From a virus (lineage: Duplodnaviria; Heunggongvirae; Uroviricota; Caudoviricetes), in IMG/VR virus record IMGVR_UViG_3300034157_000066: a DNA stretch of 64,000 bases; one strand, given 5' to 3'. A model generated the notes under the pieces. The model was not told where the DNA came from, did not search any database, and saw only the letters and a list, made by a program, of their open reading frames with translations. A program made the translations under genes and the position numbers. Each line of letters starts with the position of its first letter. Within the stretch, counting starts at the first letter, position 1. Positions 2,963 to 56,914 of the stretch are shown in pieces.

Positions 2963-3053
2963 TATCTTCTTTTTCATTATATCTATCATTGTTGAGCGAT
3001 TTATGATATTATAGTCCAAACATTTCGAGGTTTTTTAATTGAAAATTACAACA

Positions 3054-4277
3054 ATGATTGATGACATAGAAAAAATTCTAGAAGAATCATCAGAACGGCT
3101 AAATTTAAAGCAGATTAACACTAAAGAACAACCGTGCAAGGCTGATGCTGATAATCAATTTTCTTTTAGTTCGATGGGACTTAATGATAAAATTAAAATA
3201 TATTTAATTGCCCATAAAGATGTTAGTGTTGTCTATGATTTCTTAAAACTGTCACATAAGACAATTAAAAACATCGAAAAAGCTCGAAATTTCATTGCAA
3301 ATATTATTCCAGAAGAAACATCAGTTCAGCATATTATTAACAAAATACAAATTCATACTGATGACAAAATTGAACTCTCTATCATTGGTTGTGGGTGTAC
3401 AAGTTTTAGAGTGCTTCTTCGTGATGGCTTGGTATCATTTTCTATATCACACGTCAGCAATTCATATAGCAAGGAAACCTATAATTTTGAAAACTATGAT
3501 GATTTTGATGATTTAGTTAATACAGCCGTTAATAAAATCATTCCGTCTTTTATTGAAACCATAGGATTTTCATCAGGAGACAAAAACTCACCAGACGTTG
3601 TAGATTTTATTGAAAAAACAGCCGAACAAATGTTTTTTGAAAAAGAGTTAAACCCACTTTTCAATTATATTAAGCCAAATGAGCTGGTTCATTTAGTTTG
3701 TTCTGATTTAAATTTAAATTTGAATGATGTCATGCAGTCATTAAACTACAAAGAAAATGACTCTATGAAAAGTCTTAATATTCCTAATAATTTAACAACT
3801 ATGATATCTTCTATTGCTCAACATCTGGTTAATATTGATGGCATTAAATATAAATTTGATCAACTCATTAGCCTTATCATTCTTTATAATAATATTACTA
3901 ATAAAAAAGAAAAATTTTCAGTTACTTTTTATCCAGTGCAAAAGAAAGATTTCTTTAAAGGTAATTCTTTTAATCGGTCTTACTATGTACTTAATATCAG
4001 TGAAACATTAACAATTTACATTGGTCATAAACTAGGTGATGGTAAAAAAGATGACATAGCTTATTTAGATGATAGTGATGATTTTAAATTGTTCTCATTT
4101 GTTTATTTAAAAGACTTAATGAATTATGACTACTATGAATACTTAACTAACGATATTGATTATGTTTACAATGCTATTTTAACAGATCTTCGGTCTATTA
4201 TTAAAAAGGTTCTCTGCAAAGAGGATGACACTATTAGTTTCCGAGATCTTGAAGTTTATAAAATGGCTGTATTTTAA
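3054..4277 (+). CDS. hypothetical protein (~407 aa), very AT-rich, paralog of 4388..5611
   Basis: Long ORF; TTG at 3039 or ATG at 3054 possible; shares N-term (IYLIAH(K/E)DV...DFL(K/N)LS) and C-term (ND(I/L)DY(V/I)YN(A/V)ILT...(L/I)EV(Y/F)KMA) motifs with next gene. Confidence 0.6.
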   Translation: MIDDIEKILEESSERLNLKQINTKEQPCKADADNQFSFSSMGLNDKIKIYLIAHKDVSVVYDFLKLSHKTIKNIEKARNFIANIIPEETSVQHIINKIQIHTDDKIELSIIGCGCTSFRVLLRDGLVSFSISHVSNSYSKETYNFENYDDFDDLVNTAVNKIIPSFIETIGFSSGDKNSPDVVDFIEKTAEQMFFEKELNPLFNYIKPNELVHLVCSDLNLNLNDVMQSLNYKENDSMKSLNIPNNLTTMISSIAQHLVNIDGIKYKFDQLISLIILYNNITNKKEKFSVTFYPVQKKDFFKGNSFNRSYYVLNISETLTIYIGHKLGDGKKDDIAYLDDSDDFKLFSFVYLKDLMNYDYYEYLTNDIDYVYNAILTDLRSIIKKVLCKEDDTISFRDLEVYKMAVF

Positions 4278-4387: not shown

Positions 4388-5611
4388 ATGAACATTAGTG
4401 AAAAAATCAATGAATTGGAAATCAATATTAAATCATTTATTGCGGAAAATAATCTTCCTGTTTTAATTCCAAATAATAATTATCGCATTTCTTTGGATGG
4501 CGAAAATCAATGCGTTTTTGCTCAGAGTGGTAATTCACATCTTTATTTGATTGCACATGAAGATGTTCAAATCATGGAAGATTTTCTTAACTTAAGCCCT
4601 AATACAGTTAACAAGATAAATAAAATTCGGGCTTTTATTCGTGATATGTATGATGACACCAATAATTTCAAACATAAACGGTTGAAAGTTAAAATTGATC
4701 CAGATCAAAGTGTTGAGTTTTCGATTATCGGCCTTGGACTTGGTGGTCTTAGAATTGAATTAAAAGCCACTGAGCTTGTTGTTTCTTGGATTTATGGCGA
4801 TAACGTTAGCGTCATTTATTCTCTCGATGATGACATTGAACAGAAAGTAAATGAAGCATTGGATCTTGTTATACCAACAATATTAACTAAGCTTGGATTT
4901 TTGAAATGCTCAGAACACTCAGAAGAAGTTATTGATTTTATGAATAAATCTACTGATGATTTAATTGTTGAACATTTTTCAAAATTTGGATTTGATTATA
5001 TTCATCAAAATGAATTGATTGCAAATGCATGTTCATCGACCAAAATTAGTTTGGATGACCTTAACAACTATAATAAAAAAAATGAAAAACCTAATCTTAT
5101 TAAAATACCCCATATGATGATGTCTATTTTACCAAAAATCATGAGTAATATTTCATCAGATATTTCAGTGCATTCAAAATTTAAACAACTCCTTAGTCTT
5201 ATTTATTTTTACGACTATTTAAAACCAACAAACTCAGAAGCTCTCTTGATTTTTAAAGAATATTCAAAATTTGATTTAGCCCCATCAGCTAGTTTTCAAT
5301 CTGGATATTTTACTCTTTTAATGGGTGGTCTTCTTAGACTTGATGTAGGGCACCAATTAAAACCAGATCCAGATGATGAAGAACATCTGTTTGATAGCCC
5401 AAGTGAAAATGGTTATGCCTATATGTTTGAAATTTATCTTTATGATGTAGAAGCACCTGATGCTTTTTACAAATACTTTTGTAATGACCTTGATTATATT
5501 TACAATGTTATATTGACTAAAGTTAGAAACTTAATTAATTCAGCTATCTTAAATGTCGATGAGCCACTTACAGCCAGACAAATTGAAGTTTTTAAAATGG
5601 CGACTGTTTAA
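4388..5611 (+). CDS. hypothetical protein (407 aa), paralog of 3054..4277
   Basis: Promoter gtggTATAAT ~4337-4346, RBS gtgaggcgataATG; paralogy to upstream gene. Confidence 0.65.
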   Translation: MNISEKINELEINIKSFIAENNLPVLIPNNNYRISLDGENQCVFAQSGNSHLYLIAHEDVQIMEDFLNLSPNTVNKINKIRAFIRDMYDDTNNFKHKRLKVKIDPDQSVEFSIIGLGLGGLRIELKATELVVSWIYGDNVSVIYSLDDDIEQKVNEALDLVIPTILTKLGFLKCSEHSEEVIDFMNKSTDDLIVEHFSKFGFDYIHQNELIANACSSTKISLDDLNNYNKKNEKPNLIKIPHMMMSILPKIMSNISSDISVHSKFKQLLSLIYFYDYLKPTNSEALLIFKEYSKFDLAPSASFQSGYFTLLMGGLLRLDVGHQLKPDPDDEEHLFDSPSENGYAYMFEIYLYDVEAPDAFYKYFCNDLDYIYNVILTKVRNLINSAILNVDEPLTARQIEVFKMATV

Positions 5612-6744: not shown

Positions 6745-7260
6745 TTATTTCAATTCATCATATGTTTTATTAATTAGTAATGTTGACGGCCCATATGAAC
6801 ATGATATTTCATATACTTTATCATAAAATGCAGGTCTTACTACAAGATGCATATCTCTTGTTGCATCTGCTGAAAATGTTCCTATGTTTTCTGCTGTCAA
6901 AAATTGAGTGTAATAAGTTCCATTATTTAGATGGACATCAATTAAAATAACTTGACTATATCTTGAAGACTTGTCTGCAAGCTCAGCAGATGTAGAAAAC
7001 CCGCCATCAGTTTTGTATCCAATGTTGTAATATATAATATCTGGATACTTCGATATCGTTGGATAACCATTCATCAACTCAGGTGTAGAGAAGTTTTCAG
7101 GACACTCTTCCGGTTCAGCAGGTGGAGTAGGTTCTGTACTTCCGCTATCTTTATCAATAAATGAAATGGGTTCAGGCAGTTTGAAATAATAACTATATTC
7201 AGCAAATGAACTTAATGGTAATAATGTTAGTAGTGCAACAGTAAATTTTATTAATCTCAT
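6745..7260 (-). CDS. secreted protein with signal peptide and Pro-rich segment (171 aa); member of AEY-x-I/V N-terminus family
   Basis: N-term MRLIKFTVALLTLLPLSSFA|EYSYYFKLPEP; own promoter on minus strand (TTGACT...TAAAAT in 7261-7320); low GC. Confidence 0.7.
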   Translation of the reverse strand: MRLIKFTVALLTLLPLSSFAEYSYYFKLPEPISFIDKDSGSTEPTPPAEPEECPENFSTPELMNGYPTISKYPDIIYYNIGYKTDGGFSTSAELADKSSRYSQVILIDVHLNNGTYYTQFLTAENIGTFSADATRDMHLVVRPAFYDKVYEISCSYGPSTLLINKTYDELK

Positions 7261-7361: not shown

Positions 7362-8396
7362 TTAGTTTTTTGATTTTACATAAATTTCTTTCAAGCTGCT
7401 CACATCAAAGTGTGGAGCGGTTGCATAAGAGAAGCTTGGACAAATTCTATTTGGTCCAACTATTCCATTACCACCACAAGGACCACCCGCACCATACACA
7501 GGCCACAATCCGAATGTGTCTGTCATATCAGTAGCTCTCTGACCCGGCCAACCAGCCGCTTCTGGATAGAGTGTTTTCGATCCGATAGATGTATTGACTG
7601 AGAAACCACCTGCAATGTTTTGCCCCTTGTTAAAGGTGTTGAATGTTTGCCAAGAACCAAACATACTAGTCCATGTTGCGTTAGCATTCTTCACCATCAT
7701 CGCAGAACTTATATTCACAGAACCACTTGGGATTACTGGATAGGCTGTTGTATCGTTTGAATAACTGAGTATTTTACCCGTTTTCATTGCCACATCTTGG
7801 AAGTTACGCTTAGCAGACCCAGCCGGTAATTGTGTCCAACGACCCACCAATATCCAGTTCCCTCCAGCAGTATTCATATCAACATAAGCTTTAGCTTTGT
7901 TTCCTAAACCATCAGTAATGTCATAAATGCCGCTTTGACCTGCCACTGGGTTCATGATCATTAGATAACTTGTAGATGTTCCTACAGCATTCTTGGTATT
8001 CGTTAAGTTGCTCAATTCTTTACCAGAGGCTTCATCGTTATACGCAACACCTTTATCACGAATTTCACCTGTTACAGCATTTTTTTCTTGCTTGATATAA
8101 CTTTCATATTTCATACCCTTACAGTTTGTTGCTGTTTGAGTGTAGGTTGTATTAATCAACTCATCGGCTGGTAATGGTGCCCAGTTTGTGCATCCGTATC
8201 TATATAATGGATCTTCTTTTGGTAAATCAACTAAACCTAATGACTTTGGAGTGATTTCTAACCACTCAACTTGTTTGAATTTTATTTCAACAGTCCCCAT
8301 TATCACTTCATATTTTGCATAGGATAATCCGCAAAAAAGAGCAATTGACGCCATTGATAATATTTTTATGTTTTTATTAGTTGTCTTCATATTCAT
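7362..8396 (-). CDS. secreted protein (344 aa) with one copy of Cys-containing ~50-aa repeat (GCTNW.P...QTATNCKG)
   Basis: Signal peptide MNMKTTNKNIKILSMASIALFCGLSYA|KYEV; minus-strand promoter TTGAAA-16-TATAAT in 8397-8460; shares repeat with 8515, 16311, 56048 proteins. Confidence 0.75.
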   Translation of the reverse strand: MNMKTTNKNIKILSMASIALFCGLSYAKYEVIMGTVEIKFKQVEWLEITPKSLGLVDLPKEDPLYRYGCTNWAPLPADELINTTYTQTATNCKGMKYESYIKQEKNAVTGEIRDKGVAYNDEASGKELSNLTNTKNAVGTSTSYLMIMNPVAGQSGIYDITDGLGNKAKAYVDMNTAGGNWILVGRWTQLPAGSAKRNFQDVAMKTGKILSYSNDTTAYPVIPSGSVNISSAMMVKNANATWTSMFGSWQTFNTFNKGQNIAGGFSVNTSIGSKTLYPEAAGWPGQRATDMTDTFGLWPVYGAGGPCGGNGIVGPNRICPSFSYATAPHFDVSSLKEIYVKSKN

Positions 8397-8514: not shown

Positions 8515-9222
8515 TTAAATAGCTATTCGACAGACTTGATAAGTTGATTGCTCTGCATTAACAAGTGGCCCCATATAATATCTGTATCCACCAGAAACTA
8601 CAGATGTAAGATTTGTATGGACAGGGTTGTCAAAGATTGTTGCACCTTTCCAATAAATTGCTGTACCCCATCCATATCCAAAATAATTGTCATATCCTAA
8701 ATAATAATAAGAATTATTACTATAATCACTATAATTGTGCCATTTATAGTCACATTCTGGTTGGGCTTTTGTTCCTGTATTTGTTCTGCTTGATGATACA
8801 ACAATGATTTGATCTTCTGTGGATTGTATTCCCTTGTATCTAATAGCTTTCGTTGTTGATTCTTGTTCTCGTTCCTGTATTGAACGTGTTTGTGATTGCT
8901 GACAATTTGTAGCTGTTTGATTGAAGGATTCTCCCAAATTTACAGTAGATGGTTCAGGTGACCAATTATTACACCCAGTAATTGCTCCACTATCAATCCA
9001 TTCACTATATTCTGGGCTGATTACCAACCAATTTTCAGAAGGTGTTTCTGGAATTGTTGGTACCTCTGGATCTGTGGGTGCTTCAGTGGTTGGTTTAAAT
9101 TGAATAGATCCTGATTGTATGTGTCCACCATTATTAGATTCAAGTGGGAAATTTAACATATATCCAGCTTGAATTATGTTTATTGATAGTGCTGCAAATG
9201 ACACAAGTATTATTCTTTTCAT
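8515..9222 (-). CDS. secreted protein (235 aa): signal peptide, Pro/Thr/Glu-rich linker, Cys-repeat, Cys-bounded aromatic-rich C-terminal domain ending YQVCRIAI
   Basis: MKRIILVSFAALSINIIQA|GYMLNFPLES; GCNNWSPEPS...QTATNCQQSQTRS.QEREQESTTKAIRYKG; own TATAAT promoter at ~9262. Confidence 0.75.
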   Translation of the reverse strand: MKRIILVSFAALSINIIQAGYMLNFPLESNNGGHIQSGSIQFKPTTEAPTDPEVPTIPETPSENWLVISPEYSEWIDSGAITGCNNWSPEPSTVNLGESFNQTATNCQQSQTRSIQEREQESTTKAIRYKGIQSTEDQIIVVSSSRTNTGTKAQPECDYKWHNYSDYSNNSYYYLGYDNYFGYGWGTAIYWKGATIFDNPVHTNLTSVVSGGYRYYMGPLVNAEQSTYQVCRIAI

Positions 9223-12352: not shown

Positions 12353-12425
12353 GGCTGTTTGTAGTTCAGTTGGCAGAACTCCGTCGAAAAACGGTAGTCG
12401 TGGGTTCGAATCCCATCATACAGCC
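12353..12425 (+). tRNA. tRNA-like element with canonical D- and T-arms but non-canonical anticodon arm (pseudo-tRNA or unusual tRNA)
   Basis: 73 nt; D-loop AGTTGGCA, T-arm GTGGG-TTCGAAT-CCCAT, acceptor ~6-7 bp with one T.T; anticodon region CCGT-CGAAAA-ACGG gives 4-bp stem + 6-nt loop (or 3 bp + 8 nt); followed by terminator gaccactttcgagtggttttttt. Confidence 0.5.
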
Positions 12426-12620
12426 TTTATACACTAAGACCACTTTCGAGTGGTTTTTTTATTGATTTTTTATATTATGTAATGATAATCATTCTCATTT
12501 TTTTATTGACTTGACTTATTGCTGTGTTACACTATTGAATACTTTTCTATCATTATGATAAAGAATACTAAACGAATATAGATTGCGTTTTTTGCATCTA
12601 GCTATTAGGAGAATTAAATA

Positions 12621-12932
12621 ATGAAAAAGATAATGTTTGCCTGTTTACTGGTCGTCCCATTAACATCTATTGCGGTGATTGCTAATACCACTGATGTCAT
12701 TAAATCCCGAAATGATCAGTTAGCCGAATTGGTTAAAGACTCATTTTACTCTGATGTGTCTCGTTTGAACTTGACGCCCGATCAATACACCACTATTGTT
12801 AGAAAAATCAGGACTACTAATGATGGGCTGACGACTGAAATTAAAGAAGTCCTTGATGATGACCAAAAAGATACATTTGAAACCATTATGGAAGAGAAAA
12901 AAGCATCTATGGGTGATAAAATAGGCTTTTAA
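12621..12932 (+). CDS. secreted small protein with signal peptide (103 aa)
   Basis: RBS ttAGGAGaattaaataATG; MKKIMFACLLVVPLTSIAVIA|NTTD. Confidence 0.65.
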   Translation: MKKIMFACLLVVPLTSIAVIANTTDVIKSRNDQLAELVKDSFYSDVSRLNLTPDQYTTIVRKIRTTNDGLTTEIKEVLDDDQKDTFETIMEEKKASMGDKIGF

Positions 12933-13119
12933 AATTTCAATAAATTTACTTACCTTAAAAAAGAAGCCTGCAATGGTTTCTTTTTATTTTACTTTTATAT
13001 AATTAATTTTTATAATAATATCTTTTTTTAGATTAATCATATATTTAAGAATCTCTCTTGCCTTTTTACTTTAATACTATTTAATAAGAAATAAACAGTT
13101 CATTAATTCTGAGGTAAAA

Positions 13120-14004
13120 ATGACAAAGAAATATATTTTAGTGCTAATTGCTCTATCCAGTTTAGGCACTATATCGCAAGCTGATTATCAAATTAGAATT
13201 CCAATTCAACAGGCAATCTCTTTCAAGGATGTTACTTCTGGGGGTGGATCAGGCGGTAGTGGCGGCAATGGTAATGGTGGCAGCAACGGTGGTGGTGGAT
13301 TAGTTTTTACTGACCCTACTATATTAGCTGCTTATGAGGAAAAGTGTGGAGCATTTCCTAACAAAATAAATCCGTTGGCTGATCCTATACGAGACTATGA
13401 CATTAGTTGTGGTGATTATTCAAATAGAGATCTTTCTGGTTATGTGCTTGATAAAACAGGTATGCTTTTTACTAATTTTGCAAATTCAATATTAGATGGA
13501 GCTATATTAGGTGATTCTAGCTTGGCTAACAGTAATCTATCAGGAGCATCCTTAATAGGTGCTCAGTTTACCGTAAATGGCGAAAGCACTACATTAACGA
13601 ATGCTGATATTAGTAATGCTAACTTAACAAATGCTTATATGAACAAATCATATTTAGAAAAAACTAATTTTACTGACTCTAATTTAACAGGTGCTGTATT
13701 AACTAACACTAGTTTTGTTGGTGCAAACTTGAAAAATGCTAACTTAACGAATACTAATTTTGACACTTCCTATGTTATTGATACGAATTTTACTAGTTCA
13801 AATTTTACAGGAGCCACATTAACTAATACTGCATTTATTAATACTAATTTTACTAACGCAAATTTGATTGGAGCTGATCTCAGCACCAGTGCGTTCAGCA
13901 ATGTTGATTTCACTAATATCTTGTATGATGCGACCACAAAATGGCCTTCATGGTACACACCACCACAATCTAGTAATGGATATCAGTTCACACCGCAATG
14001 GTAA
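13120..14004 (+). CDS. secreted pentapeptide-repeat protein (294 aa) with Gly-rich linker
   Basis: Signal peptide ...GTISQA|DYQIRIPIQQ (same AxY.I..P mature N-term as secreted family); GGGSGGSGGNGNGGSNGGGG; >20 tandem A(N/D)L(T/S)x pentapeptides (ANLTN, SNLTG, ANLKN, TNFTS, ADLST). Confidence 0.75.
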   Translation: MTKKYILVLIALSSLGTISQADYQIRIPIQQAISFKDVTSGGGSGGSGGNGNGGSNGGGGLVFTDPTILAAYEEKCGAFPNKINPLADPIRDYDISCGDYSNRDLSGYVLDKTGMLFTNFANSILDGAILGDSSLANSNLSGASLIGAQFTVNGESTTLTNADISNANLTNAYMNKSYLEKTNFTDSNLTGAVLTNTSFVGANLKNANLTNTNFDTSYVIDTNFTSSNFTGATLTNTAFINTNFTNANLIGADLSTSAFSNVDFTNILYDATTKWPSWYTPPQSSNGYQFTPQW

Positions 14005-14183
14005 GAAAAAGATTGACAAATTTGAAAAAGTGTTGTCTAAAACAACAACCAAAATGATTGAGATCTTCAATTATCAACCATTTTGAATAAGGCATTTTAA
14101 CCAAATGTCTTATTTTTTTGTCTTAAGTTGCGTTGTTGAACCTTTTGGGCTAAAATATTTTTAAATTAACATGGGACTTTCTA

Positions 14184-14639
14184 ATGATTTTAACTATCGA
14201 ACTTGTACCTAAATCTTGCTGGTTTTCTAACTTGCGAGATCACCTCACGGAAGCACAATGGAAAGAAGTCAAGCTTAGCACATTTAAGGCTGCAGATAAT
14301 CGTTGTGAAATCTGTCATGGTGTTGGGGATAAGTGGCCGGTAGAATGCCATGAGGTTTGGGAATATGACGATATCAATAAGGTACAGCGTCTGGCAAGAA
14401 CTGTTGCTCTTTGCCCATCATGTCATCAAGTTAAGCATATAGGTATGGCGATGGTTACTGGTCGTTACAATCATGCAAAATCACATTTCTCAGCTATCAA
14501 TAAAGTCCCTATGAGACAAGCAGAACGCTATATTGATAAAGCCTTCAACTTGTTTAATGACCGATCAAAGTTTGAATGGACACTAGACATTTCTTGGATT
14601 AACCAAAACTTCGGATTCACTATTAAAGAAAAACGTTAA
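14184..14639 (+). CDS. HNH-like zinc-finger endonuclease family protein (151 aa)
   Basis: CEICHG...ECHEVWEYDD.N...CPSCHQVKH arrangement (CxxC...H...N...CxxC-H) typical of HNH nucleases. Confidence 0.5.
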   Translation: MILTIELVPKSCWFSNLRDHLTEAQWKEVKLSTFKAADNRCEICHGVGDKWPVECHEVWEYDDINKVQRLARTVALCPSCHQVKHIGMAMVTGRYNHAKSHFSAINKVPMRQAERYIDKAFNLFNDRSKFEWTLDISWINQNFGFTIKEKR

Positions 14640-16310: not shown

Positions 16311-17255
16311 ATGTACATTAAAAAATTGCTCTTAGTTCCTGCACTTTCATTGTTAGGAATGAATTCTTTCGCAGAATATCAAATACAATATCCAGATGTT
16401 CCCGTTATCTTTAAAGATCTTGGTAAATGGGTTCCGGCTAATCCTATAATCTCTACTTGGGTTAATGTAGGCACTCCACATGATTGTCAAAGTGCTTCGC
16501 CACTTGAGAACACACAACAACTGGGTTTGTCATATGAAAAAACATTTTCAGGCTGCAAACAAGCACAAGAAAGAACTGTAACTACTTCTGAAAAACAGAC
16601 GTTTACAGGTGCTGTTCGTAATCAAGTGAGCACAAAAGAAACACAAGTGTTAACTAATGCTAGTTATAAAGTTAATTCTATTGGAACTACTGATTTTGGT
16701 CAATGGTTACAAACTGCTCCAGTTTATACAGGTTGGGTAAATCTTGAATCTCCACATGATTGTACAAGTGCTATACCACTTGAAAATACACAAACACTTA
16801 ATTCAACTTATGTAAAAACATTTTCTGGTTGCACACAGTCACAGGAACGCACTGTCACAACTTCTGAAAAGAATACTGTTACAGGTGTTGTTCGTAACGT
16901 AGTTAATACTAAGGAAAATCAAGTTCTCACTAATGTAACTTATACTGCAAATGCAATAGGAACAAAGGTTGTTAAAGAATGTGGTTACTCAGCAGTCAGT
17001 GGACATGCTTACAGATGGTATGATATTGCCACTTATGATGGTTATACAACTACTTATGGAATGGGGTTACAATGGGATGGTTCTACTAAAATTGATACCA
17101 CAAACATTAGTAAGACTTACCCTAAAGCAGCAACTTTTGTGAATGGTGGTTATACTTATACTCGCGGTGCATTTAAAGAAAAAGGTTCACATTATGACGG
17201 TCTACGTTCATACTATTATTACTATGAAGTGTGTAGAGAACCAATTGCACCATAA
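16311..17255 (+). CDS. secreted protein (314 aa) with two tandem copies of Cys-repeat and Cys-bounded aromatic C-terminal domain (...YYYEVCREPIAP)
   Basis: Signal peptide MYIKKLLLVPALSLLGMNSFA|EYQIQYPDVP; two ~95% similar repeats (PHDC.SA.PLENTQ.L...KTFSGC.Q.QERTVTTSEK.T.TG.VRN.V.TKE.QVLTN); start chosen at ATG 16311 (weak RBS); terminator 17262-17290. Confidence 0.7.
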   Translation: MYIKKLLLVPALSLLGMNSFAEYQIQYPDVPVIFKDLGKWVPANPIISTWVNVGTPHDCQSASPLENTQQLGLSYEKTFSGCKQAQERTVTTSEKQTFTGAVRNQVSTKETQVLTNASYKVNSIGTTDFGQWLQTAPVYTGWVNLESPHDCTSAIPLENTQTLNSTYVKTFSGCTQSQERTVTTSEKNTVTGVVRNVVNTKENQVLTNVTYTANAIGTKVVKECGYSAVSGHAYRWYDIATYDGYTTTYGMGLQWDGSTKIDTTNISKTYPKAATFVNGGYTYTRGAFKEKGSHYDGLRSYYYYYEVCREPIAP

Positions 17256-24422: not shown

Positions 24423-24761
24423 ATGAAAGTAATGAAAATTGTTTTTGCTGCTGTTGCCCTTGTAATGATGACTGGCTGCATGTCAACCTCTCAGTATGGC
24501 TCCTACAAAGAACGTCAAATTGAACGCAAGTGCATCGTGAATGCTGACAAACAAGCTCAAAATGCCTACATTCGCCGTCAAACTGATGTTCGGTTTGCAG
24601 ACTCTCAGAAGGAAGCCATGCGAGCTAACCAAATGTTTCAGAAAAAGATTGCCAGTATTGAAACCAGCAAAGACCGTTGTTTATCCAATGGTCAGCGTCG
24701 GGTCTTTGAAGAACAGCTTCGCCGCACGACTAACCGCATGTATAACCGTAGCTACTACTGA
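24423..24761 (+). CDS. putative lipoprotein (112 aa)
   Basis: MKVMKIVFAAVALVMMTGC lipobox-like; RBS gAAGGATACgaccATG; ~100-nt structured leader from tggTATAAT ~24320. Confidence 0.6.
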   Translation: MKVMKIVFAAVALVMMTGCMSTSQYGSYKERQIERKCIVNADKQAQNAYIRRQTDVRFADSQKEAMRANQMFQKKIASIETSKDRCLSNGQRRVFEEQLRRTTNRMYNRSYY

Positions 24762-31580: not shown

Positions 31581-32435
31581 ATGCTTAAAAAGATTTTTGC
31601 TTCTCTTGTTCTTCTGGCATCAGTTGCCCTCAGTGGGTGTTCTGAAACCGTAGACGCTGGTTTTGTTGGTGTTGTTGAAAAACATCCCTACGTTGGTCCG
31701 GGTGGTGTAGAGAAAGAATTTTACAAAGGTGGTGATCGCTACTATATCTCGCCAACCTCCATCATGCACCGCTATGACATTAAACCTATTCAGAAAGAAG
31801 AAGCGTTTAATGACTTGGCAACCATTAACTCGACTCCGGTAGACTTTAAAGCGGTGGTTCGTTATGAAATCATTCCTGAAAAAGCTTACATCTACCATGA
31901 AAGCTTTGGTAATGCGATGTATGATAATAACTTGAAAAAAGACTTTCAAAACATGCTTCGTGACTTTGCTCGAAAACACACTGTGAAGCAACTCACTACA
32001 GAACAGACAGTGACTGACGCAGGTGAAGACGATGTTTACAAGAAAATGGTTGACATTGTTGTAGCAAAAGGCATTCCGGTTCGAATTTTGGCTGTAACTA
32101 TCGGTGCAATTATGCCACCCGATGAAGTTCTTGCAGAAACTGCTCGGACAGAAGCTCAAATTCAACGTGCATTAACTGAAATTGAACGAGCATCTGCTGA
32201 AACTCAGCGAAAAGAAGCTGAAACCAACAAAGCTGCTGCTGACAATGAATACATGAGCAAAATGAAAATGACACCTGAGCAATACTTGCGAGGTCGTGAA
32301 ATTGATAACCAGCGTGAAATTGTTGAAACGGTCAAAAAGAAAGATAACGTCAACATGTTGATTGTCTTGGGTGGTGGTGGTTCCCTTCCACAAGGGGTAA
32401 CAGTTCCACAGCCAATCGTTCAACCAAAGCAGTAA
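31581..32435 (+). CDS. SPFH/band-7 (prohibitin/HflK-like) domain lipoprotein (284 aa)
   Basis: Lipobox LSGC; TVDAGFVGVVEK start typical of SPFH domain entry; C-terminal Ala/Glu/Gln-rich coiled-coil; terminator aaaggccaactagtggccttttttg ~32447-32475. Confidence 0.5.
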   Translation: MLKKIFASLVLLASVALSGCSETVDAGFVGVVEKHPYVGPGGVEKEFYKGGDRYYISPTSIMHRYDIKPIQKEEAFNDLATINSTPVDFKAVVRYEIIPEKAYIYHESFGNAMYDNNLKKDFQNMLRDFARKHTVKQLTTEQTVTDAGEDDVYKKMVDIVVAKGIPVRILAVTIGAIMPPDEVLAETARTEAQIQRALTEIERASAETQRKEAETNKAAADNEYMSKMKMTPEQYLRGREIDNQREIVETVKKKDNVNMLIVLGGGGSLPQGVTVPQPIVQPKQ

Positions 32436-32492: not shown

Positions 32493-32960
32493 TTAAAGGT
32501 TAGGGTAGCGGCATATTTTATAGTAGTTATACTTGGTATCAGCTCTATTAAATGCTCCTAATACATAAGTGTATTGACCAGCAATAAATGGGAAATATTT
32601 ATTTTGAGTATATACACTGTCTATAACTATTGTGTTAGTCCATTTAATATATCTAATCATGCCTATTGGATAAGGTGTTGATGTATTAAATGTCATTGCA
32701 TAGTTAGAACTTTCTGAATAGTTTTGGCATGTATACCCTGCCCTATCTTCGTCCTTTGGTGGCACTGGCGGTTCAGGAATTACAGGGACTTCTGGCTCAG
32801 GCGGTATTGGTGGTGTTTCTGGATTTGTAGGCGGTTTGATCTTTGAAAATACGATGTCACCTTCATTTAAGTGAGCTTTTGGATGAATGACCACTTGATA
32901 ACTTGCATTCGCTATTGTTGTTACAGCCAATAAAGAGGCTATCATTATTATTTTTTTCAT
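32493..32960 (-). CDS. secreted protein (155 aa): signal peptide, Pro-rich linker, Cys-bounded aromatic C-terminal domain (...YYKICRYPNL)
   Basis: MKKIIMIASLLAVTTIANA|SYQVVIHPKA; PPTNPETPPIPPEPEVPVIPEPPVPP; own minus-strand promoter tgtatTATAAT ~32975-32990; C-term aligns with 8515/16311/56048 C-termini. Confidence 0.7.
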   Translation of the reverse strand: MKKIIMIASLLAVTTIANASYQVVIHPKAHLNEGDIVFSKIKPPTNPETPPIPPEPEVPVIPEPPVPPKDEDRAGYTCQNYSESSNYAMTFNTSTPYPIGMIRYIKWTNTIVIDSVYTQNKYFPFIAGQYTYVLGAFNRADTKYNYYKICRYPNL

Positions 32961-34134: not shown

Positions 34135-35256
34135 ATGTCCAGCATCTTCCCGCGTATTGAAACCCTTGATGATATGCTTCCTCACATCAAAGACCGTGCC
34201 TATATTTCTGTTAATAAACAGGATAACGGTGCCAACATCGTTTGCTATAACATCAGCAACGGCGACTCTTTCAACACTCCGGTTGAAAAGGAAGCTCGCG
34301 GTATTACCTTTGACGACAACGGTAAAATCCTGTCGCGTCCATTGCACAAATTCTTCAACTTGGCAGAGCGTGCAGAAGTCCAACCAGCCGTTTTGGATTG
34401 GAACACGATGGTCGCCGGGTTTGATAAAATGGATGGCTCCATGATTACCACAGGGCTGTTCAACGGCGAATTTTTTGCTAAGTCCAAGAAGTCTTTCAAA
34501 TCGGATGTGGCTGTTTCTGCAGAAAGTTTTGTGTCTCGTAACCAGAAATACTACGAGTTCACCAAATATTGCTCTCAGGCCCAACTGACCCCTATTTTTG
34601 AATTCACTTCGCCAAAACATCGTATCGTTTTGCGTTATGACGAAGACAACATGACACTTCTTCATGTTCGTCACAACATCACAGGCGATTACTTAATGCC
34701 TGCTGACAAAGACCAACTGGCGTTGTTGTTTGATATTCCTGTTAACAAGCCACTGTTTGGTGAAGAATTTGATTTGGCTGCTTTATTGAAGTCGCTGAAC
34801 ACTGTTGAAGGGATTGAAGGCTACGTTATTCAGTTCGTTAACGGTAACATGATCAAAATCAAAACCAAATGGTATATGAACCTCCATCATGCGGTTAGCT
34901 TTGTTCGTGAACGTGATATTGCTCGGTTGGTGGTTGAAGAAAAACTTGATGATTATATCGCTTATTTGTCGCTGAACTCGCCAACGGCTGATTTGAGTGA
35001 GATTTATCGAATCAATGACGCTATCAAAGCTTCGATTGAAGCGTTGTCGAAAGAAGTTGATGATATTGCTGCTGAATTCCAAGGTGTTGATGTGAAAACT
35101 GCAGCAATTCAGCTTAAAGGCCATAAACACTTTGGTTTTGTTATGGGTGCAATTCGTGGTCACAAAAACGACTACCTGTATCACTACTCTAAAAACCATC
35201 TGGTGGATTGGTCGTTGGAACAAATTGAGCTTGGCGACTTGTCAGCTCCGGTTTAA
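34135..35256 (+). CDS. rnlA: RNA ligase 1 family (T4 RnlA-like) paralog A, 373 aa
   Basis: KxDG adenylation motif (FDKMDGSM), RGITFD.NG...RP..KFFNL, EGYV.QF..G...KIKT.WY.NLHH blocks; same length (373-374 aa) as T4 Rnl1; promoter cgaTATAAT ~34096-34104; terminator aagccctgcacttgcggggcttttt ~35270. Confidence 0.8.
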   Translation: MSSIFPRIETLDDMLPHIKDRAYISVNKQDNGANIVCYNISNGDSFNTPVEKEARGITFDDNGKILSRPLHKFFNLAERAEVQPAVLDWNTMVAGFDKMDGSMITTGLFNGEFFAKSKKSFKSDVAVSAESFVSRNQKYYEFTKYCSQAQLTPIFEFTSPKHRIVLRYDEDNMTLLHVRHNITGDYLMPADKDQLALLFDIPVNKPLFGEEFDLAALLKSLNTVEGIEGYVIQFVNGNMIKIKTKWYMNLHHAVSFVRERDIARLVVEEKLDDYIAYLSLNSPTADLSEIYRINDAIKASIEALSKEVDDIAAEFQGVDVKTAAIQLKGHKHFGFVMGAIRGHKNDYLYHYSKNHLVDWSLEQIELGDLSAPV

Positions 35257-36166: not shown

Positions 36167-36222
36167 ATTAAAAATCAGTTTTTGATATAATCAATTCAGA
36201 CAATTTAATCGTGGAGATTCAC

Positions 36223-37344
36223 ATGACTTATCAACAAGAACTGTATGCCCAACTGATGAACCTGTTGGTGACGAATCCGGGGTCGTTCAAATACCGTGAT
36301 GAAACCTCGGCAGTAGACGGCGGGACTTACCGTGTCTTCAACTATGACATTCCAAAGCACTCCGAATTCAAACTTCCGGGTGCTAAGGATTGCCGTGGGG
36401 TCATGTTCTACATGGGCGGTGATGATCCAGTGCTGGTTGCATTGCCTATGCAGAAATTTTTCTCGCTCGGTGAAACCCCAGAGACTCAAAAGATCAAGCC
36501 AGAAGAAGCGGATCATGCTTACTTGAAGCCGGACGGTTCCTTGCTGACCAGCTATATCTCGCCGGTTAACAATACGCTTTACTACAAGAGCAAAAAGAAG
36601 CCAACTTTTGCCGATTATGACCTTGTTGAAAAGTCTATCAGCCCTGAATTGCACGCTGACATTGAACGGTTGACCCGCACAGGTGTTTCTGTTGACTTGG
36701 AATTGACCACGCCCAAAAACCGCGTGTTCATTGAATACACTGATTACGCTGTTCATATCCTAAAAGCCCGTGATATGAGCACTGGTGCTTATGTTGATAT
36801 TCGTTCGGCTGAATTCGCTGCCAAATACCCGGTTATTGCGGCCCATTTGGTGAAACGTATCCCTATCAATGAACTCAACGTCAATGACCCTGAGATTGAG
36901 GGTTATGTGGTTGAATTTGGCACTGACATGTATAAGGTGAAGACAATTCCTTACCTGAAAATGTCGGCAGTTGTCAACATTCAGGATCGGTCGAAGGAAC
37001 GTCAGGTTATTTATGAAGCAACACTTCACGAAATTCTGGATGAAATCCGTTCGTTGTATCACTACCGGACGCACAGCGACAACTTCCCACTGGCTGAAAT
37101 TCTGGCTCGCTTGGATGAAGTAGAAGACTATGCACGTAAAAGCTACCATTACCTTGTTCGCACGGTCGATAGCTTCCACAATGAGCATAAAGGTCTGGAA
37201 CGTGGCGATTACGCTCGTAAAGCCAAAGAAGTGGCTCCATTGCTTCTGTCGGTGTTGATGAGCAAGTTTTCGGGTGATGAGATTGATTACAAACAAGCTG
37301 CTATCATGGTATTTGCTCGTAAACAAGTGCCTATTCCCGAGTAA
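36223..37344 (+). CDS. rnlA: RNA ligase 1 family (T4 RnlA-like) paralog B, 373 aa
   Basis: GGTYRVFNYD...CRGVMF, MQKFFSLGETPE, YLKPDGSLLTSY (KxDG), EGYVVEFGTDMYKVKT, EHKGLERGDYARKAK closely parallel T4 Rnl1 blocks; promoter ttgaTATAAT ~36183-36192; terminator aacggccctagtcttctagggcttttttat ~37353. Confidence 0.85.
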   Translation: MTYQQELYAQLMNLLVTNPGSFKYRDETSAVDGGTYRVFNYDIPKHSEFKLPGAKDCRGVMFYMGGDDPVLVALPMQKFFSLGETPETQKIKPEEADHAYLKPDGSLLTSYISPVNNTLYYKSKKKPTFADYDLVEKSISPELHADIERLTRTGVSVDLELTTPKNRVFIEYTDYAVHILKARDMSTGAYVDIRSAEFAAKYPVIAAHLVKRIPINELNVNDPEIEGYVVEFGTDMYKVKTIPYLKMSAVVNIQDRSKERQVIYEATLHEILDEIRSLYHYRTHSDNFPLAEILARLDEVEDYARKSYHYLVRTVDSFHNEHKGLERGDYARKAKEVAPLLLSVLMSKFSGDEIDYKQAAIMVFARKQVPIPE

Positions 37345-37774: not shown

Positions 37775-38086
37775 ATGAAAAAATTACTGTGCTTTTTGGC
37801 TGTACCCTTTTTGCTAACAGGTTGTTTGGATGAATTAAAAACGTCCGAAGCTTCACAGGTAAGCACTGCGAATACAATCAAGTATCAAAAGGAAATTGAT
37901 ATTGCTCGGGATAACGGCCCGCAAGATATTGTTTGTAGCTCAGGTGGTGTTGTTACCTATAAGCACGAAAATGTTATCTTGTATCGTAGCATTTATTCAG
38001 ATACTAGAAACATTGATGTCTATGAACAAGACACTACTGAGAAAGTTGTTGTTTCTGGGGACTGCACCATTCGCCCACATAAGTAA
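37775..38086 (+). CDS. small lipoprotein (103 aa), paralog 1 (Llp/superinfection-exclusion-like candidate)
   Basis: MKKLLCFLAVPFLLTGC lipobox; RBS ttGGAGttgtcATG; mature part with 2 Cys (DIVCSSGGVVTY...DCTIRPHK). Confidence 0.7.
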   Translation: MKKLLCFLAVPFLLTGCLDELKTSEASQVSTANTIKYQKEIDIARDNGPQDIVCSSGGVVTYKHENVILYRSIYSDTRNIDVYEQDTTEKVVVSGDCTIRPHK

Positions 38087-38127: not shown

Positions 38128-38421
38128 ATGAAAAAAATATTAGTTGGATTAGCTCTTTCATTGGCACTGTCAGGTTGTGATCGTGTACAACCCGCTGCTG
38201 TAGATCCTCAAAACAGGGTTATCAGTTATGAACGCGAATATGGCCCGAAAGATATCATTTGCCATTCTGGTTCAGTGGTGACTTATGATCACAAAAATGT
38301 CATTATTTATCAAAATATTCAGCATAATTCTACCATTCTCGATGTTTATGAGAATGATACTCATGAAAAGATTGGTTTGCCAGTGGCTCAATGTATTTGG
38401 CGACCTCACAAGCAAAGTTAA
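38128..38421 (+). CDS. small lipoprotein (97 aa), paralog 2
   Basis: MKKILVGLALSLALSGC lipobox; RBS attGGAGActttATG; aligns with 37775 product (DIICHSGSVVTY...QCIWRPHK); terminator aaagccgctttcgagcggtttttt. Confidence 0.7.
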   Translation: MKKILVGLALSLALSGCDRVQPAAVDPQNRVISYEREYGPKDIICHSGSVVTYDHKNVIIYQNIQHNSTILDVYENDTHEKIGLPVAQCIWRPHKQS

Positions 38422-56047: not shown

Positions 56048-56914
56048 TTAGTTAACTTGGCAAACTTGATATCCGCCTGATTGATATGGCCCACGTCTGT
56101 ATAGTTTACCATCAGTTCCTCTTACATCTGGATAGTTAGTTAAGTAGTCTGGATTGACATAATTTCTATATACAACATTACCTTGCCATAAAACAGTTAA
56201 TTCTGTAATGTAACCTTCATCTTCTTGATAACCCCATTCATAAGAACTCCATGCGAAGTTACATACTGTCGCTGGTTTTGTTCCAATACTTGTTCTGGTT
56301 GATGTGGTTGTAATGGATTGATTTTCAATAGTCGATGATCCTACATTTCTTATCACATTTGTGGTTGTTTCTTGTTCACGATTTTGTTTGCTACGAGTTT
56401 GAGGTTGCTTACAATCCGTTGCAGTTTGTGTGAATGATTGACCAGATGTGACCGTTGATGTGGCTGGACTCCAGTTCGTGCAGCTTGTTACAGCCCCACT
56501 ATTAACCCATGTTGTGACATCAGCAGCAATCGCCACCCATGTTTCTAATGTGCCTACAGCACTCCGTGTTTGAGTTGTGTTAATACTTTGGGATTCATTG
56601 TAAGGATTTCCAATGTTACGAATACTGCCTGAAACATTATCAACTTCTCGATCTTGCACTGTTCTGGTTTGATCTTGCTTACAGTCGTTTGCTGTTTGTG
56701 TAAACGTATTTCCGATGGTTATTGCAGATACTGCAGGACTCCAATTTAAACATGAATGCACACTTCCTGTGTTTTCCCAATCGCCATACAATGGAGAATT
56801 TGCAGTCCAACTGGCAAATCTTACTGGTTCATCTAAGTTAAATTTAACAATATATTCAGCTTGTATTATGCCACCAGCTAATGCCAGCGTTAATGATAGT
56901 AATGTTTTTTTCAT
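56048..56914 (-). CDS. secreted protein (288 aa) with two Cys-repeats and Cys-bounded aromatic C-terminal domain (...GGYQVCQVN)
   Basis: Signal peptide MKKTLLSLTLALAGGIIQA|EYIVKFNLDEP; repeats C.NWSP..S....G..FTQTA.DCKQ.QTR..Q.RE.....IRN.G twice; lone minus-strand gene in AT-rich intergenic context. Confidence 0.75.
   Translation of the reverse strand: MKKTLLSLTLALAGGIIQAEYIVKFNLDEPVRFASWTANSPLYGDWENTGSVHSCLNWSPAVSAITIGNTFTQTANDCKQDQTRTVQDREVDNVSGSIRNIGNPYNESQSINTTQTRSAVGTLETWVAIAADVTTWVNSGAVTSCTNWSPATSTVTSGQSFTQTATDCKQPQTRSKQNREQETTTNVIRNVGSSTIENQSITTTSTRTSIGTKPATVCNFAWSSYEWGYQEDEGYITELTVLWQGNVVYRNYVNPDYLTNYPDVRGTDGKLYRRGPYQSGGYQVCQVN

Follow-up and report, generated by a model that had tools for sequence, protein, structure and literature searches.

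We analysed a 64,000-nucleotide (nt) stretch of viral DNA (IMG/VR record IMGVR_UViG_3300034157_000066; the whole stretch is called the window below) with respect to the gene at positions 13120 to 14004 on the plus strand, a complete coding sequence that begins with ATG and encodes a pentapeptide-repeat protein (PRP) of 294 amino acids (aa) plus a stop codon. The reading that we favour, and that we hold with about even confidence, is that this PRP is made by a phage, exported by the Sec pathway, and placed in the bacterial envelope as a tethered, rigid rod, and that it is not a cytoplasmic mimic of DNA directed at gyrase. A first-pass annotation of the window had described the product as a secreted PRP with a Gly-rich linker and had suggested either a periplasmic β-helix scaffold or a mimic aimed at an envelope protein. 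The scaffold idea fits the findings presented here, whereas the mimic idea is not supported, as described below.

The assignment to the PRPs was borne out by comparison with Pfam, in which family PF00805 matched with an E value of 8.4e-28 and a score of 96 bits (cut-off 20.2), PF13599 with an E value of 4e-16, and PF13576 with an E value of 3e-12, all above the family cut-offs. Pfam matches to the CfAFP (antifreeze) family and to the SV2 luminal domain fell below the cut-offs and were rejected as generic β-solenoid or PRP similarity. The repeats extend over residues 103 to 271 (13426 to 13932, plus strand), and it was found that they are in register from residue 103 to 152 and, after a 4-residue bulge (residues 153 to 156), from residue 157 to 271. 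The tandem pentapeptides that had been noted in the first-pass annotation are present, but the count of about 25 was too low: there are 33 repeats in register, corresponding to about eight coils. Of the 22 repeats in the uninterrupted block, 19 have L or F at the centre and 20 have A, T, or S at i−2, and the i−1 position is mostly N.

An AlphaFold2 model was built on an alignment of five ortholog sequences, and the predicted local distance difference test (pLDDT) values were 88 to 98 over residues 100 to 268, with the β-bridge pattern of a four-sided solenoid. The fold predicted by this model is the right-handed quadrilateral β-helix that the first-pass annotation had proposed to check by structure prediction. 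The only α-helix in the model comprises residues 66 to 76, and no helix is present C-terminal to the repeats. When the model was compared with the PDB using Foldseek, the top matches were all PRPs: designed consensus solenoids, HetL, Np275/276, AlbG, QnrB1, MfpA, and EfsQnr. The matches also included the lumenal protein Rfr32 (2g0y), with a template modelling (TM) score of 0.69 over its length, and the plant protein TL15 (3n90). A sequence profile compared with the PDB gave the same picture, with the addition of the periplasmic protein IcmE/DotG. In this profile comparison, HetL was matched with an E value of 1e-19 and Rfr32 with 7e-9, and MfpA and Qnr were the weakest of the PRP matches. The profile, in which we found no special affinity to either the Qnr/MfpA branch or the Rfr32/YjbI branch, prefers generic cyanobacterial PRPs such as HetL to Rfr32.

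The surface of the predicted helix was also examined. The mature protein is acidic overall, with an isoelectric point (pI) of 4.1 and a net charge of −11. However, there are no more than 8 acidic and 3 basic residues between positions 157 and 271; these charges are few, they are distributed over all four faces, and the surface consists mainly of Asn, Thr, and Ser. An acidic stripe, which a DNA mimic or a Ca-binding face would be expected to have, was not found on the helix over residues 157 to 271. Because the helix surface is made of uncharged Asn, Thr, and Ser residues and lacks an acidic stripe, a role as a DNA mimic is not supported. A conserved binding face was likewise not found on the helix, as no face was preferentially conserved among the four full-length orthologs, in which the outward i+1 position was invariant in 1 of 13 columns.

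In agreement with the first-pass annotation, the N terminus has the properties of a signal peptide. Residues 1 to 21, MTKKYILVLIALSSLGTISQA (13120 to 13182, plus strand), can be divided into n-, h-, and c-regions, with Lys3 and Lys4 in the n-region and a core, YILVLIALSSLGT, of 13 to 14 hydrophobic residues. The predicted cleavage site lies between SQA and DY (MTKKYILVLIALSSLGTISQA followed by DYQ), with Ser at −3 and Ala at −1, as the −3/−1 rule requires, and with Asp at +1. All of these features are conserved in the orthologs. We infer from the sequence rules and from this conservation that the protein enters the Sec pathway and is cleaved by signal peptidase I (SPase I) after Ala21.

The predicted mature protein begins with a 16-residue segment, DYQIRIPIQQAISFKD (residues 22 to 37; 13183 to 13230, plus strand), that has the appearance of an amphipathic two-strand motif and is called the tag below. 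The mature N terminus, DYQIRIPIQQAISF, aligns with the pattern xYxhxh(P)...hxF of a family of secreted proteins. In the diverged ortholog P0001, in which the tag reads GYEIRIPMHSSIVF, the residues Y2, P7, I12, and F14 and the hydrophobic residues at positions 4, 6, and 8 were kept, whereas the other tag positions were altered. The tag is followed by a Gly/Ser/Asn-rich tether of 23 residues (residues 38 to 60; 13231 to 13299, plus strand), which is predicted to be flexible; the Gly-rich string quoted in the first-pass annotation, GGGSGGSGGNGNGGSNGGGG, was found verbatim at residues 41 to 60. The tether varies in length from 13 to 23 residues among the orthologs, and its pLDDT is about 30. Residues 1 to 58 are disordered in the AlphaFold2 model, and the pLDDT of the tag is below 50; in a second AlphaFold model, that of a tag-bearing paralog, the tag has a pLDDT of about 60 to 68, and in both models the tag is undocked.

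Between the tether and the repeats lies an N-terminal cap (N-cap; residues 61 to 102; 13300 to 13425, plus strand; pLDDT 71 to 87), which contains the helix of residues 66 to 76 and the sole cysteines of the protein, Cys76 and Cys97. Both cysteines are invariant in the five orthologs. A conserved Cys pair of this kind is a common property of proteins whose folding takes place in an oxidising compartment. An exhaustive phmmer search with the N-cap (residues 61 to 125) against 1.84 billion representatives gave only the phage orthologs as credible matches. Matches of the N-cap to multi-repeat Big_9/He_PIG immunoglobulin (Ig) proteins were rejected as spurious because the model shows a helix in this region; they depend on a short TDP..PN[KR]..DPI.D pattern summed over repeats.

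At the other end, the helix is closed by a PRP terminal cap motif, ILYDATTKWPSWYTPP (residues 267 to 282; 13918 to 13965, plus strand), which is the most conserved region among the orthologs (87%). A special role for the entire conserved C terminus was considered and rejected in part, as this motif is generic: the pattern hxYDxxTxWPxxhxP also closes repeat blocks in the unrelated proteins P0007, P0014, P0022, P0058, and P0105. Only the last 12 residues, an aromatic tail, QSSNGYQFTPQW (residues 283 to 294; 13966 to 14001, plus strand), are family-specific, and they are conserved in all five orthologs. The protein ends with ILYDATTKWPSWYTPPQSSNGYQFTPQW, the pLDDT falls to 43 to 55 in the tail, the tail contains no charged residues, and the net charge of residues 266 to 294 is 0.

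The tag is the most informative lead provided by the first-pass annotation, in which a mature N terminus common to several secreted proteins had been noticed. We found that seven open reading frames (ORFs) of the window, including the PRP gene, fit a signal peptide followed by small-x-small and xYx[IVL]x[hydrophobic](P)...[IV]xF, compared to none in 40 shuffles of the window. In all seven proteins, the residue at −1 is small and that at −3 is one of those allowed, and neither Tyr at +2 nor Phe at about +14 varies, although the identity of the paralogs to the PRP over the N-terminal ~60 residues is only 19 to 31%. The six other genes encode a protein with Trp/Cys-containing repeats and a C-terminal Cys domain (16311 to 17255, plus strand), a protein with repeats that were modelled as elongated β rods (56048 to 56914, minus strand), a protein in which a long form of the tag is followed by a Pro/Glu/Thr-rich linker (8515 to 9222, minus strand), a protein with a further, distinct C-terminal region (7362 to 8396, minus strand), a 171-aa protein with unrelated cargo (6745 to 7260, minus strand), and a 155-aa protein with a Pro-rich linker and the C-terminal domain of the family (32493 to 32960, minus strand). 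Five of these six have in common the Trp/Cys-containing repeats and/or the C-terminal Cys domain; the repeats are about 85 residues long and follow the pattern W..C.NWSP...F.Q.A.DC.Q.Q.R. The PRP showed no similarity to the other tag proteins past residue ~38, and neither the Trp/Cys repeats nor the Cys domain was found in it. In all, the tag is present on at least four different cargos, to which it is joined directly or by Gly-rich or Pro-rich linkers.

The model of the paralog encoded at 56048 to 56914 (pLDDT 88.9) consists of long β-hairpin rods with an unstructured tag. The fold of the cargo showed only a weak resemblance, to the G5-E stalks of SasG/Aap (E values of about 0.01 to 0.02). 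For this paralog family, 86 homologs were found, which are unnamed and lack any Pfam domain. They include proteins of Pseudomonas shirazensis, P. helleri, P. luteola, P. entomophila, and a Hafnia metagenome-assembled genome, as well as two copies on a 971-kb megaplasmid of P. fluorescens. When 13 of the homologs were retrieved, most of those with an intact N terminus had the tag at the same place, and about 85 uncharacterised proteins from metagenomes, Pseudomonas islands, and the megaplasmid were counted as tag-bearing relatives. The Pseudomonas genes are located at the edges of mobile islands, beside genes for Replicase/PriCT_1, a recombinase, KfrA, and SSB. No neighbour gene was common to the Pseudomonas islands and the phage window, and any partner of the tag is therefore more likely to be a component of the host. 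The fusion of a PRP to the tag was found only in the clade of this phage.

The long form of the tag contains a Gly-containing insertion between the two halves of the motif, as expected for a β-hairpin with a variable turn. We also observed, on a P. helleri island (locus L009, 2082 to 2297), a 71-aa ORF that encodes scarcely more than a signal peptide and a long-form tag. It is located about 4 kb upstream of a full-length family member and could represent either part of a broken gene or a minimal protein made up of the tag alone.

Relatives of the PRP that match beyond the generic repeats were rare: only four were found among 5.8 billion clusters, all of them in the syntenic position on metagenomic contigs of related strains. 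Three more contigs (L014 to L016), which are 99.6 to 100% identical to the window, carry the same 294-aa gene; the coding sequence is identical in L015 and L016, and one strain differs by the substitution N50S in the tether. Syntenic orthologs of the gene are thus present in at least five strains. Among GenBank phages, neither near relatives nor relatives at the protein level were found, in a search in which the masking of low-complexity sequence may have weakened tblastn, and a scan of IMG/VR with the ortholog alignment gave no confirmed relative.

The ratio of nonsynonymous to synonymous substitution rates (dN/dS) of the gene was 0.16 to 0.31 in pairwise comparisons with three orthologs, indicating purifying selection, with synonymous sites near saturation. 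For the cap and tail, dN/dS was 0.07 to 0.22 in comparison to the window (0.07 to 0.08 in some pairs) and up to 0.40 between other orthologs. The length of the helix also differs between strains. A 40-residue segment (13699 to 13818, plus strand; alignment gap columns 194 to 233) is present in this strain and absent from P0001 to P0003; the difference is exactly 40 residues, or two coils, and would be in line with a length that is adjusted by entire coils. When nucleotide sequences of different strains were aligned, the alignments were interrupted within the repeats, and the region is highly mosaic. The shortest ortholog, P0004, has about 22 repeats fewer. At its locus (L005, 9968 to 10010), an extra A in the A-run of the signal-peptide region shifts the frame, so that an internal TTG serves as the start of the gene as called; P0004 may be a decaying copy of the gene or the product of a homopolymer assembly error.

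The sequences flanking the gene contain candidate signals for its expression. A terminator-like hairpin (12958 to 12985, plus strand), with an 11-pair stem followed by a T-run, appears to close the upstream gene, and it is followed by a σ70-like promoter, TTTACT-17-TATAAT (12988 to 13016, plus strand), which has 10 of 12 matches and was the top candidate of the region. A Shine–Dalgarno sequence, GAGG (13111 to 13114, plus strand), is located 5 nt before the ATG and is kept in four of the five loci. Both promoter hexamers are invariant or nearly invariant across the five orthologous loci, whereas the synonymous sites of the coding sequence are near saturation. More generally, the 187-nt intergenic region (12933 to 13119) has a mean identity of 86% with long invariant runs across the five loci, and it is far more conserved than the synonymous sites of the PRP gene. 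The presence of a separate promoter after the terminator of the upstream gene, together with the invariance of the hexamers, therefore points to independent transcription of the PRP gene. An invariant UUGCCUU upstream of the gene is predicted to be able to pair with the Shine–Dalgarno sequence. A structure of the 5′ untranslated region (UTR) that sequesters the Shine–Dalgarno sequence was predicted, but none of its pairs covaried and the covariation term was unfavourable, and a regulatory RNA structure at this place is only a lead. Downstream of the gene, a candidate weak intrinsic terminator, AAGGCATTT-TAACC-AAATGTCTT followed by T7 (14089 to 14119, plus strand), was seen by eye; the terminator scan made no call at this position, because there are too few G-C pairs.

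A model that accommodates these results is as follows. The PRP gene would be transcribed alone from its conserved σ70-type promoter, probably early in infection. The 21-residue signal peptide would direct the product through Sec and would be cut off after Ala21, and Cys76 and Cys97 would staple the N-terminal cap in the oxidising periplasm. The mature protein would then consist of the 16-residue amphipathic tag, a tether of about 23 Gly/Ser/Asn residues, an eight-coil helix of about 40 Å, the generic end-cap, and the 12-residue aromatic tail. These steps (transcription, export, the Cys staple, and the mature layout) are based on the sequence evidence and the structure predictions, which strongly indicate independent transcription, a classical Sec signal, a β-helix with a conserved Cys pair in its N-cap, and disorder of the tag and tether. 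As to function, we infer that the tag serves as an address, one that also heads the six other secreted proteins of the phage and about 85 other proteins, each with a different and mostly rod-like cargo. The tag would be unstructured alone, and it would most likely dock by β-strand addition onto a component of the host envelope, the same one for all tag-bearing proteins. The β-helix would provide a stiff, polar, protease-resistant spacer or shield, with a length that would be set from strain to strain by the addition or loss of entire coils. The role of the protein would most probably be modification of the envelope of the infected cell, resulting either in the exclusion of other phages or bacteriocins or in a YjbI-like damping of envelope-stress signalling. 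Any particular target is held with far less confidence than the rod model as a whole. The early, periplasm-facing Imm and Sp proteins of phage T4 are the classical analogues for such an envelope-modifying role.

A broader version of this model, which we regard as speculative and rather doubtful, is that the tag is a hitherto undescribed envelope address carried by mobile elements, and that phages and Pseudomonas plasmids and islands join it by means of Gly- or Pro-rich tethers to interchangeable rods, the PRP helix being one of them. In this version, the tag would park the rods on one envelope machine of the host (for example, TonB/Tol, Bam/Lpt, or a secretin) by strand addition and so block competing phages, bacteriocins, or DNA.

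Several points weigh against the tethered-rod model. The predicted export and location of the protein rest on sequence features and their conservation, and Pseudomonas as the host is only suggested, by way of the homologs of the paralogs. The low pLDDT of the tag is equally expected from the shallow, five-sequence alignment. P0004 may be a decaying copy and not evidence of a tunable length. The tag may be no more than a passive leftover from an export cassette, and no result points specifically to exclusion or to stress signalling.

The possibility of a passive remnant leads to the alternative that survives best, although we consider it fairly unlikely: that recombination placed a PRP segment behind the 5′ end of a gene for a secreted protein, with the result that the tag is inert and the protein, either free in the periplasm or released, acts by means of its helix or its ends. 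In several ortholog pairs, the synonymous substitution rate (dS) was 0.14 to 0.25 at the 5′ end of the gene compared to values greater than 1 elsewhere, which fits recent recombination or gene conversion, and both the mosaicism of the region and the lack of structure of the tag in the models are also in line with a recycled 5′ end. However, the invariance of Y+2 and F+14 across paralogs with only 19 to 31% N-terminal identity, the presence of the motif in distant Pseudomonas homologs, and the specific retention of the motif positions in the diverged ortholog P0001 argue against an inert tag. Furthermore, the flexible Gly- or Pro-rich tether is conserved in kind across the different cargos, which would make little sense for a functionless remnant.

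It is less probable still that the gene is a phage copy of a YjbI-type PRP, which would be located at the outer membrane or lipopolysaccharide (LPS), silence envelope-stress two-component systems of the host, and alter the composition of the outer membrane. YjbI is defined by a Sec signal, two Cys pairs that flank the helix, and a charged C-terminal tail (PMC12864828). The Sec signal, the quadrilateral β-helix, and the N-terminal Cys pair of the phage protein agree with three descriptors of YjbI, and Rfr32 (2g0y), which was matched by fold, is treated as a YjbI ortholog (Cyanothece/Crocosphaera; PDB 2G0Y/2F3L) in the same study (PMC12864828). In contrast, the phage protein has one Cys pair and not two, its tail is aromatic and net-neutral whereas YjbI needs a Lys-rich, charged tail, acidic patches are absent, and the profile preference for HetL over Rfr32 runs counter to such an origin. 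In addition, YjbI is a 183-aa protein for which neither a tag nor a Gly tether has been described. Because it lacks both a second Cys pair and a charged tail, which are two of the three features that define the class, we have not filed the phage protein as a member of the YjbI class.

Two further alternatives are very improbable. A cytoplasmic, gyrase-targeting DNA mimic of the Qnr/MfpA/AlbG type with a non-functional signal at its N terminus would have in its favour the fold (as in QnrB1, MfpA, AlbG, and EfsQnr) and the acidic pI, but it is contradicted by the canonical signal peptide that is conserved in the orthologs and common to the secreted family, by the conserved Cys pair, by a model that lacks a C-terminal dimerisation helix, by the sparse and scattered charges, and by a sequence affinity to MfpA and Qnr that is the weakest among the PRP matches in the PDB. 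Similarly, a virion component (a fibre or decoration protein) with the β-helix as a structural rod would be in keeping with the frequency of β-helices in tail fibres and tail spikes and with a very weak match to the tail-fibre family phrog_28766 (E value 0.074), but it is at odds with the Sec signal peptide and early-type promoter, with neighbours that are small, early-region-like genes, an HNH endonuclease gene, and an exonuclease gene instead of structural genes, and with the occurrence of the tag family on mobile elements other than phages, namely plasmids and islands.

The origin of the window from a phage is well supported. Its phage-like features include genes for an HNH endonuclease and an exonuclease and three transfer RNA (tRNA) genes, a gene of the T4 Y00F family is present on a syntenic contig, and the window contains dozens of small, same-strand ORFs without family matches. 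Two paralogous RNA ligase genes of the T4 RnlA type (34135 to 35256 and 36211 to 37344, plus strand) are separated by about 1 kb. In GenBank, the ligases were best matched by the jumbo Ralstonia phage RsoM2USA, and because the identity was only 42%, the lineage of this phage appears to be poorly represented among cultured phages. The HNH endonuclease gene (14184 to 14639, plus strand; phrog_5200, E value 1.5e-48) is directly downstream of the PRP gene in all strains and may contribute to the mosaicism of the region.

The gene upstream of the PRP gene (12621 to 12932, plus strand) encodes a 103-aa protein that has a signal-peptide-like N terminus and its own terminator, and that is predicted to be secreted and is probably helical. 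This gene is immediately upstream of the PRP gene in L001, L002, L004, L005, and L014 to L016. The protein has 20 homologs, which were found in metagenomic data only, and those that were looked up are on contigs of this phage. The possibility that it is CpxP/Spy-like, on account of an LTPDQ motif, was rejected because there was no Pfam support even at an E value of up to 10, and the JGI label "RNA processing factor Prp31" on two of the homologs looks spurious. A tRNA gene was detected further upstream (12355 to 12424, plus strand; 44 bits with Rfam), to which ARAGORN assigned no anticodon, followed by a terminator-like hairpin at 12436 to 12457.

Elsewhere in the window, a tandem pair of genes for paralogs of about 410 aa (3039 to 4277 and 4388 to 5611, plus strand) was found; the proteins are 30% identical over their full length and have no PHROG or Pfam match. 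There are also four predicted lipoproteins with a lipobox Cys (24423 to 24761, 31581 to 32435, 37775 to 38086, and 38128 to 38421, plus strand), one of which matches the family phrog_200 "lipoprotein" and one of which has Asp at +2 after the Cys. Taken together, these four lipoproteins and the seven tag proteins indicate a heavy investment of the phage in proteins directed to the envelope.

Comparison with known systems shows that the PRP itself is less surprising than the first-pass annotation held, and that it is the shared tag on rod-like cargos that is uncharacterised. That annotation had considered an exported PRP in a phage to be unusual. Neither export nor a phage origin is unusual for a PRP: PRPs with a signal peptide are an established class, as exemplified by Rfr32, TL15, DotG, and YjbI (alias PerA; PMC12864828), and viral PRPs are frequent, with about 30 models in BFVD and five PHROG families (15350, 923, 7713, 12514, and 31265), in addition to the reported P22-like orf232 and Listeria phage CKA15_017 proteins. 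Between phages L and ST64T, the variation in repeat number has been reported to occur in single units of 15 bp. Like these PRPs and that of the Pseudomonas phage tabernarius, the protein described here is phage-encoded, often in early regions in their case, but none of them has been reported with a signal peptide, a tag, or a Gly tether.

The same Pfam family and fold include the topoisomerase-protecting PRPs Qnr, MfpA, AlbG, and McbG, which are cytoplasmic, dimerise by means of a C-terminal helix, and have DNA-like, anionic surfaces. The phage protein differs from the Qnr/MfpA/AlbG group in its predicted location outside the cytoplasm, in the absence of a dimerisation helix from the model, and in the absence of an anionic surface. 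The thylakoid-lumen PRPs (Arabidopsis TL15/At2g44920, 3N90; Cyanothece Rfr23, 2O6W) are also exported, were matched by fold and by sequence, and have small cap elements, but they are much shorter, reside in another compartment, and have neither tag nor tether. IcmE/DotG of the Legionella Dot/Icm system has a periplasmic, structural pentapeptide region that was matched with an E value of 2.6e-10, but it is a 1048-aa subunit of a machine, with no homology outside the repeats.

A parallel in predicted location is the conserved class of secreted PRPs described by Costafrolaz et al. (sPRP/YjbI, alias PerA; Caulobacter CCNA_01968; PMC12864828). YjbI is located at the outer membrane, silences two envelope-stress systems, and has been implicated in sensitivity to a contact-dependent bacteriocin; a first function for secreted PRPs is recent, that of YjbI as an outer-membrane sentinel that controls antibiotic susceptibility (PMC12864828). 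The phage protein resembles YjbI/PerA in its predicted Sec signal, quadrilateral helix, and Cys pair at the N-terminal end of the helix, and in a predicted site of action outside the cytoplasm, where gyrase would be out of reach. It differs from YjbI/PerA in having a single Cys pair, a neutral aromatic tail, no acidic patches, a longer helix of 33 repeats, and a tag and Gly tether, and in being encoded by a phage. An exported PRP of a phage could serve as a natural probe of how a β-helix acts in the envelope.

With regard to the tag, the nearest relatives are the Pseudomonas proteins (P. shirazensis WLF18_08095, P. helleri GHO40_19155, and those of pMPCFBP13716), which likewise combine a signal peptide with xYxhxhP...hxF, are located on mobile elements, and have rod-like, β-rich bodies, whereas their cargo consists of Trp/Cys repeats and a C-terminal Cys domain and not of a PRP helix. 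The shared tag matters more than the PRP: it heads seven or more secreted proteins of a single phage, and dozens of proteins encoded by mobile elements of Pseudomonas also carry it. If the tag is inert, the PRP gene would be one more uncharacterised accessory gene in a hyperplastic region of a phage; if it addresses a component of the host envelope, it would belong to a modular toolkit by which mobile elements remodel or defend the cell surface, and it could provide a handle for periplasmic targeting. What is new relative to these systems is the architecture: a phage-borne, predicted exported PRP with a mobile-element tag, a Gly tether, a Cys76/Cys97 cap, and a rod that varies in length by coils.

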